A stretch of 64,000 bases of DNA from a plasmid. Made by a program: the position numbers. The DNA is taken from NCBI RefSeq assembly GCF_056746865.1, contig NZ_JBWKMP010000004.1; one strand, given 5' to 3'. Of the stretch, positions 43,901 to 46,900 are shown piece by piece. Position 1 is the first letter of the stretch. Every line of letters starts with the position of its first letter.

Positions 43901-46900
43901 CCTCGGCGTGAAATATTTCCCGGCCATGATGCTGGTTGACCCGAAACAGGGCAGTGTTCGTCCGTTATCATACGGTTTTATTTCGCAGGACGACCTGGCA
44001 AAACAGTTCCTGAACGTTTCTGAAGATTTTAAACCGAACTTCTGAATTACGGATATTTTCCGTTCGTCAGTAAATTCCATTAATTCTGAACCTGGTAATA
44101 ATTCACCATTTATTCCGGTAGTCCCTTATTTAATTCTCTGTATGACAGGAGAGTTTTACTGTGCATAAATATAAATTCTCTTTACCCCGGCTTGATATTA
44201 CGGGAATGTGGGTATTTTCCCTGGGTGTCTGGTTTCATATCGTCGCCCGTCTTGTTTACAGCAAACCCTGGATGGCTTTTTTTCTGGCGGAGTTGATTGC
44301 GGCCATCCTTGTGCTGTTCGGCGCATACCAGGTGCTGGATGCATGGATTGCCCGTGTCAGCCGGGAAGAGCGTGAGGCACTGGAAGCTAGGCAACAGGCC
44401 ATGATGGCAGAGCAGCAGGAGGGCGGACATGTCTCTCACTAAATTACTGCCGGTCATTTTGTTGATGATGGCCACAGGTGTGCAGGCCTCCACCCGGGAT
44501 GAAATTGAACGACTCTGGAATCCGCAGGGTATGGCCGCGCAGCCTGCACAACCGGCAGCAGACACGTCAGCCAGGACAGAAAAGCCGGCTCCCCGCTGGT
44601 TCCGCCTCAGCAACGGCAGGCAGGTTAACCTGGCCGACTGGAAGGTGGTGCTGTTTATGCAGGGGCATTGCCCTTACTGCCACCAGTTTGACCCGGTACT
44701 GAAGCAGTTGGCACAGCAGTACGGCTTTTCCGTTTTTCCCTACACCCTGGATGGTCAGGGGGATACCGCCTTTCCGGAAGCATTACCGGTGCCACCGGAC
44801 GTGATGCAGACCTTCTTCCCGAATATCCCGGTGGCCACACCGACCACCTTCCTGGTCAACGTCAACACGCTTGAGGCATTACCGCTTTTACAGGGGGCAA
44901 CGGATGCCGCCGGTTTTATGGCGCGGATGGATACCGTTCTGCAGATGTACGGAGGAAAAAAAGGTGCGAAATAAGCAGGTGGTGTTACTCATTGCCGGAA
45001 TATCCGGCATCGCGACGGGAATAATCGTCAGCCTGAATATCCCCTTTATCCGTCAGGGGCTTTTTTATCCCGCCAGCCCTGTAGAAATAGTCGTTTCGCT
45101 GTGTCTTACCTTTTCTGTTTCTGTTGTGTTTTTTGTGGGGGCAATTGTGGGATGGATTTTGGTGTCTGAAATATATTACAGCCGCATGACCGGTCTGAAT
45201 GAATCATCAGTAATATCAGAGGAAACTTATAATGACAGCAAACAAAAAGAATCAGGAATTCAAAATCAGAAAAATTAGACGGAATATTGAGTATAGTTTC
45301 AGGGATTCTGACAGATATTTTGATTTGTTTATTGTTTTCCTTGTTGCCGGAATTGTTTTATGGGCAGTTATGCACGTTATTTTCGATGTCTGTATTGATT
45401 CATGGATGGCCGACCCGAAATTACTTAATTTCCAGTATATGTGGAATGTTCTGATGAAAGTCATTCCGTTTACGTTATGGGCGCTGGCAGCAGGGTTTCT
45501 TGTTACATTTTTTCTGTCCCCAATGTGCGAATTAATATTCGGAAATATCATGATATTCCTGCTGAAACGCCGTATGCGCCGGGAGAACACATTAAGGGAG
45601 GGCAGCAATAATGCTTCGCATTAAGCCTCTTTTTATTCTTTGTGCCGCCTTACTGACGGTGACGCCTGCAGCGTCAGCGGATGTGAACAGCGACATGAAT
45701 CAGTTCTTTAACAAGCTGGGCTTCGCCTCCAATACCACACAGTCGGGCGTCTGGCAGGGGCAGGCTGCCGGCTATGCTTACGGCGGCTCCCTGTATGCCC
45801 GTACTCAGGTCAAAAATGTTCAGCTGATTTCCATGACGCTGCCGGATATCAATGCCGGATGTGGCGGCATCGATGCCTACCTCGGTTCGTTCAGTTTTAT
45901 TAATGGCGAGCAGCTGCAGCGTTTTGTTAAGCAGATTATGAGCAATGCTGCCGGTTACTTTTTTGACCTTGCCCTGCAGACAACGGTGCCGGAAATCAAA
46001 ACCGCAAAAGACTTCCTGCAGAAAATGGCAAGCGACATTAACAGTATGAACCTCAGTTCCTGCCAGGCGGCGCAGGGGATTATTGGCGGGCTTTTCCCCC
46101 GGACGCAGGTGTCCCAGCAAAAAGTCTGTCAGGACATTGCCGGTGAGAGCAATATTTTTGCTGACTGGGCGGCTTCCCGGCAGGGATGTACCGTTGGCGG
46201 GAAATCTGACAGTGTCAGGGATAAAGCCAGCGACAAGGATAAGGAGCGGGTGACCAAAAACATCAACATCATGTGGAATGCGCTTTCCAAAAACAGAATG
46301 TTTGACGGCAACAAAGAGCTGAAAGAGTTTGTGATGACGCTGACCGGCTCACTGGTGTTTGGTCCCAACGGCGAAATCACACCGCTGTCAGCCAGAACCA
46401 CTGACCGCTCAATTATCCGGGCCATGATGGAAGGCGGCACAGCAAAAATTTATCACTGCAACGATTCTGATAAATGCCTGAAAGTGGTGGCAGACACACC
46501 GGTGACCATCAGCCGGGATAATGCACTGAAGTCTCAGATTACTAAACTTCTGGCCAGCATTCAGAACAAGGCGGTCAGTGACACGCCTCTGGATGACAAG
46601 GAAAAAGGCTTTATTTCCAGTACCACCATCCCCGTCTTCAAATACCTGGTTGACCCGCAGATGCTCGGAGTTTCCAACAGCATGATTTACCAGCTGACGG
46701 ACTATATCGGTTACGACATCCTGCTGCAGTACATTCAGGAGCTGATACAGCAGGCCCGGGCGATGGTGGCCACAGGAAATTATGACGAAGCAGTTATCGA
46801 ACATATTAACGACAACATGAATGATGCCACCCGGCAGATTGCGGCGTTTCAGTCACAGGTGCAGGTACAGCAGGATGCGCTGCTGGTTGTCGATCGTCAG

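Follow-up and report, generated by a model that had tools for sequence, protein, structure and literature searches.

The 64-kb window (the whole stretch of plasmid DNA analyzed here) very probably carries the complete F-type transfer operon of a pHN7A8-like plasmid, with both of its sites for optional cargo, one between traF and traQ and the other between traD and traI, in the empty allelic state. This layout is standard for the pHN7A8/IncF33 epidemic lineage, and whether an F-like plasmid has trbA, artA and trbH is an already-known, non-essential accessory polymorphism (PMC5102898). The observation that the three genes are missing is correct but ordinary, and its importance beyond correct annotation is slight.

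Plasmid lineage and resistance genes

By sequence, the window is part of a pHN7A8-like (IncF33) IncFII resistance plasmid with blaCTX-M-55 and fosA3. pHN7A8 (NC_019073), the prototype IncF33:A-:B-/IncFII plasmid, matches positions 36437-64000 of the window at 99.75% identity and positions 6370-36436 at 99.89-99.97% identity, and the two agree in gene order, down to the accessory open reading frames (ORFs) at traU|trbC, trbC|traN and traT|traD. The IncF33 assignment is made through this backbone and through identity in the copB-repA1 leader, with the window stopping within the replicon at 64000; the replicon start is near-identical to that of pHN7A8 and only ~78% identical to that of R100. Further relatives of the lineage are p2019XSD11-92 and p13P477T-3. 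The pHN7A8 backbone has been called R100-like, with trbA listed among the tra differences (PMC10654068).

The window and pHN7A8 differ in their resistance genes, which are blaCTX-M-65, fosA3 and rmtB in pHN7A8 and blaCTX-M-55 and fosA3 in the window, and in a ~2.3-kb group II intron (ltrA) that is present in the pHN7A8 leading region at the equivalent of window position 15217 and missing from the window. The resistance genes of the window lie in an IS26-bounded multiresistance region at 1-7200, with the order IS26, fosA3 (2044-2460, minus strand), IS26, a truncated blaTEM (3606-4343), orf477/WbuC, blaCTX-M-55 (5125-6000, minus strand) and IS26.

Organization of the transfer operon

The canonical F-type (MPF_F/MOBF12) gene order, traM-traJ-traY-traA-L-E-K-B-P...traN-trbE-traF-traQ-trbB...traG-S-T-D-I-X-finO, is present throughout, as determined from an ORF map, the annotation of p2019XSD11-92 and per-gene blastn comparisons to F and R100. 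The p2019XSD11-92 locus covers window positions ~25000-63700 with differences such as an indel in the traD repeat, and it is 100% identical over 43000-45700. The first of the two sites is preceded by traN (41175-43025), trbE (43052-43309) and the pilus assembly gene traF (43302-44045, with a TGA stop), and followed by traQ, by trbB (44429-44974), which overlaps the end of traQ as it does in F and R100, by trbJ and trbF, and by traH (45611-46984), with traG next. The second site lies between traD (52098-54341), coding for the 747-aa coupling protein, and traI (54341-59611), coding for the 1756-aa relaxase/helicase. All of these genes with coordinates given are on the plus strand.

Gene by gene, the operon is a mosaic of F-like and R100-like segments. 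The F-like portion includes traA-traR (97-100% identical to F by per-gene blastn), trbG (98.4% to F, with no match in R100), traS (98.5% to F, with no nucleotide match in R100) and traH (97.5% to F versus 84.0% to R100). The R100-like portion includes traN, which is 94.7% identical to R100 over its full length and has an F coverage of 44%, the traD/traI junction without an insert, and a hypothetical ORF of 245 aa between traT and traD (51310-52047, plus strand) that is 98.8% identical to R100 positions 75462-76199; this ORF has no blastn match in F and no NCBIfam hit, and the same slot in pKpQIL likewise holds an ORF. The TraF protein is that of R100 (both under accession WP_001030371.1, according to the p2019XSD11-92 annotation), and the traF nucleotide identity is 98.9% to R100 and 97.6% to F.

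The earlier note had taken the missing genes as consistent with a tra region that is R100-like rather than F-like, and this holds in part: it fits the traD/traI junction and the 245-aa ORF, but trbG, traS, traH and traA-traR are F-like, and the traF-traQ slot resembles neither plasmid. R100 further differs from the window in having a group of four ORFs at traR|traC, where the window has none, in lacking trbG, in having traS and traJ/traY genes of another type, and in an alpha/beta-hydrolase ORF that sits between traX and finO. At traU|trbC, trbC|traN and traT|traD, F has none of the accessory ORFs. Neither the R100-specific content beyond traF-traQ (the traR-traC ORFs, the absence of trbG, and R100-type traS and traJ) nor the classic F arrangement (trbA with artA, and the vapBC insert) is found in the window.

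Two further parts of the operon are unlike either reference. The traJ gene (27633-28319) is annotated only as a 'PAS domain-containing protein' and has no blastn similarity to the traJ of F or R100, and traY (28413-28640) has only ~70% identity to the references over 61% of its length. The traJ/traY regulatory module is of an allele type distinct from both. Accessory ORFs are present in pairs between traU and trbC (38805-39113 and 39176-39697) and between trbC and traN (40359-40730, coding for 123 aa, and 40756-41178, which is HNH-endonuclease-like). Nucleotide comparison with F and R100 gave no match for any of the four; the HNH-like ORF has a weak, below-cutoff match to a retron-type HNH model, and no NCBIfam family was found for the other three.

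Gene content at the traF-traQ and traD-traI sites

The spacing reported earlier is exact at both sites. At the first, the TGA of traF ends at 44045 and the GTG of traQ is at 44161, leaving a spacer of 115 bp (44046-44160, plus strand) that represents an 'empty' allele of the trbA/artA slot. At the second, traD abuts traI directly, the stop and start codons sharing a single base, at 54341, within TGATG. Relative to F, whose gene order carries all three, trbA, artA and trbH are indeed missing: tblastn searches of the whole 64 kb with the F TrbA, ArtA, VapB and VapC proteins and with R100 TrbA gave only chance-level matches, with a best E of 0.054. No NCBIfam model matches ArtA, and some GenBank records (such as CP088728 and NZ_PP215914) give 'toxin ArtA' as the product name.

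Comparison with the reference plasmids bears out the gene order that the earlier note assumed for F and, at traD/traI, for R100. F (NC_002483) has 759 bp between traF and traQ, with trbA in the plus orientation followed by artA in the minus orientation. R100 (NC_002134), however, has trbA at 67870-68214 in this interval, the only missing elements being artA and the insert at traD/traI, and the use of R100 as the trbA-less pattern has to be abandoned; in practice R100 is unsuited as a trbA-less reference. Plasmids without trbA or artA between traF and traQ include the Salmonella F-like plasmids pSLT (NC_003277) and pCFSAN006171_1 (CP074295) and the Klebsiella plasmid pKpQIL (NC_014016), and in pKpQIL only 10 bp separate the two genes and traD abuts traI. 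The lineage reference pHN7A8, in which the missing genes might normally have been present, has a spacer identical to that of the window over all 115 bp and abutting traD and traI genes, and the proposed absence stands.

The traD-traI site and the identity of trbH

In F, traD and traI are separated by a block of 715 bp (extracted-locus positions 25959-26673), which current annotation gives as vapC/vapB on the minus strand. The historical 239-aa 'trbH' corresponds to the long plus-strand open frame of this block. In pSLT the vapBC/'trbH' cassette is also present (extracted-locus positions 36561-37280), and trbH and an antisense mvpA/vapC homologue are annotated on the same DNA. Under current annotation trbH is a shadow ORF, lying opposite a toxin-antitoxin cassette of vapBC (mvpAT-like) type, and a 'trbH' annotation would in practice be read as the shadow of that cassette.

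The ~710-bp vapBC blocks of F and pSLT are positioned at the stop/start overlap and have TGATGA on both sides, whereas the window and R100, where traD likewise abuts traI without an insert, each have a single TGATGA. That of the window, at 54339-54344 on the plus strand, marks the empty site of the cassette. On this comparison the traD|traI site is a clean presence/absence polymorphism, in which the TGATG overlap is the commoner state and the one seen in R100, and F and pSLT have the cassette with a duplicated TGATGA.

The start of traQ

The 93-aa product of traQ (44161-44442, plus strand), the pilin chaperone, matches the TIGR02741 equivalog model over residues 1-93 of 93 (E = 1e-53, above the cutoff), and TraQ is intact. 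In identical plasmids PGAP places the start at an ATG at 44206, giving a 78-aa protein and a 160-bp gap after traF. The true start is probably the GTG at 44161, with PGAP truncating TraQ by 15 residues in this lineage; we favor the GTG because of the full-length TIGR02741 match and because the Shine-Dalgarno sequence and GTG are invariant in a divergent relative. The Shine-Dalgarno sequence, AGGAG, is at 44147-44151 (plus strand), 9 nt upstream of the GTG, and the block containing it, CAGGAGAGTTTTACTGTGCATAAATATAAATTCTC, is unchanged in the divergent Salmonella allele of CP074295.

TraQ codons 1-5 (VHKYK) belong to the haplotype of the empty slot, and the remainder of the protein is 97.8% identical to that of F and R100. 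The F and R100 proteins start with ATG-ISK(R/Y)R, in contrast to CP074295 and pSLT, which start from GTG with V(H/R)KYK (GTG-HKYKF in CP074295 and GTG-RKYK in pSLT).

Origin of the empty traF-traQ allele

Alignment of the window to F and R100 shows two sharp break points. Identity runs to ...GATTTTAAACC, 10 nt short of the stop codon of traF, and resumes at ATTCTCTTTACCCC, within traQ codon 6; the DNA in between is unrelated. In 60-nt bins compared with R100, the flanks are 97-100% identical and this block 55-75% identical, and a blastn search of the spacer against the tra regions of F and R100 gave no match. Homology of the spacer was tested further by comparing global alignment scores with those of 1000 shuffles. 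The 118-bp R100 trbA-traQ intergenic DNA gave z = 0.5, with 310 of 1000 shuffles scoring as well, whereas the 128-bp traF-traQ spacer of CP074295, a divergent Salmonella F-like plasmid, gave z = 12.2, the SD, GTG and first traQ codons being invariant between the two. The 213-bp pSLT spacer is marginal (z = 2.0) and unrelated in sequence. The genes flanking the junction in the Salmonella F-like plasmids and pKpQIL are much more divergent from the window, at 50-95% per 60-nt bin.

These comparisons identify the traF-traQ slot as a third allele, neither F-like nor R100-like, and the empty junction as a distinct and old allele residing within R100/F-like flanks. The haplotype consists of the spacer plus ~10 nt at the traF end and ~17 nt at the traQ start, and is related to the trbA-less junction of the Salmonella F-like plasmids. 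Because of the sharp break points and the presence of a divergent haplotype within flanks of 97-100% identity, allele exchange rather than a recent trbA deletion is the better account, and the pattern of break points suggests that the allele was exchanged by homologous recombination in the conserved flanking genes. The three outgroups inspected (CP074295, pSLT and pKpQIL) favor the empty state as the possible ancestral one; the change would be either a gain of trbA/artA in the lineages of F and R100 or a replacement in that of IncF33.

A more elaborate reading joins the two sites. It takes trbA (with or without artA) and vapBC as exchangeable cassettes at fixed slots and the empty haplotype as ancestral, with the IncF33 lineage having gained or kept it through a ~140-bp patch of Salmonella type. 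We regard this combination as speculative and rather improbable as a whole. Were it true, a fitness or host-range effect would be possible, for example through loss of a membrane-protein or toxin-like pair.

Recent deletion from an R100-like ancestor with trbA, in which the 115 bp would be a scar, is very unlikely. It would account for the 98-100% identity of the traF and traQ bodies to R100 and for the identical TraF protein, and the length of the spacer is close to the 118 bp of the R100 trbA-traQ intergenic DNA. However, no homology could be detected between the spacer and the DNA that flanks trbA in R100 or F (by blastn, or by alignment at the z of 0.5 given above); the differences also reach traQ codons 1-5 and, as synonymous changes, the final codons of traF, and the same haplotype, with its GTG start, occurs in a divergent trbA-less Salmonella plasmid. 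The scores of alignments against shuffles thus largely refute the deletion scar.

Search for functional elements within the spacer

The spacer contains little else that can be recognized. No ORF of at least 20 aa is contained within 44046-44160, and the sole ORF overlapping it is a shadow frame of 89 aa on the strand opposite traF. Scans of the spacer found no sigma-70 promoter-like or terminator-like sites and no Rfam matches at E <=1, and a repeat search gave only short matches at chance level. A small predicted hairpin, ACGGA-TATTT-TCCGT, is located just 3' of the traF stop (44049-44063, plus strand), and it is partly conserved in CP074295; no T-run comes after it, and the terminator scan made no call here.

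It could be supposed that the spacer is a regulatory element replacing the roles of trbA and artA, in the form of a hairpin sequestering the SD, a small RNA or a promoter for traQ/trbB, but this is hardly to be expected, and ranks slightly below even a recent deletion. A predicted 8-bp stem pairing AAUUCUCU with GGAGAGUU, with its left arm at 44132-44139, does cover the SD, the minimum free energy has a z-score of -2.0 (7 of 200 shuffles as good), and conservation across divergent lineages is high in the 3' third of the spacer. That z-score is marginal, however, the Salmonella allele loses two of the eight stem pairs with no compensating change, and the scans for promoters, terminators and Rfam families described above were negative. 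The conservation near the traQ start is explained by the SD, the start codon and the coding sequence, which counts against a regulatory role.

The spacer is better regarded as an intercistronic linker, and nothing found in it hints at more; it supplies only the ribosome-binding site (AGGAG) and GTG start of traQ. Transcription from the upstream tra promoter would read through it, and TraQ would likely initiate independently at its own SD and GTG.

Distribution and expected consequences

The traF-trbF segment was matched in 3,931 PLSDB records. The window-type spacer is present in ~625 PLSDB plasmids, in 526 of them at an identity of at least 99%; the 625 carriers include 359 from Escherichia, 210 from Klebsiella and 42 from Salmonella, and all but 15 (610/625) are typed as conjugative. 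An artefact of assembly or annotation, with genes collapsed or mis-assembled, has nothing found in its support and can be set aside as wholly implausible, the same junction recurring in independently sequenced complete plasmids (the 526 records at >=99%, from E. coli, Klebsiella, Salmonella, Shigella and Citrobacter, including pHN7A8).

The alternative states are also common. DNA resembling trbA is found in ~2,878 PLSDB records and full-length artA in 1,296, most other artA matches being just the 45 nt beside trbA, as in R100. The traD/traI junction is matched in 3,989 records and is contiguous in 3,004 of these (~75%), and the F-type vapBC block is present in 1,178. In a published comparison of 256 MOBF12 plasmids, trbH was found in only 8%, and trbA, trbG and artA formed a low-frequency co-occurring set, with essential genes in >80% (PMC5102898).

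We expect the absence of trbA, artA and trbH to have no effect on conjugation, because these genes are dispensable in classical F mutants; insertion mutants of each in F reportedly remain transfer-proficient. A neutral absence would fit the status of the lineage as a widely transmitted conjugative plasmid, and several records with 99.8% identity over 43000-45700 (from the 3' end of traN to the 5' end of traH) are of transconjugant origin.

Two variants were seen among these plasmids. CP024249, an IncFIA/FIB/FIC plasmid of E. coli O182:H21, has a spacer of ~91% identity with a 9-bp insertion (extracted-locus positions 2501-2639), and therefore the empty-spacer allele also occurs outside IncF33 backbones. 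In TraD, the QQP repeat near the C terminus (window positions ~54045-54065, residues ~650) is two units (18 bp) longer in the window than in p2019XSD11-92, a repeat-length polymorphism.
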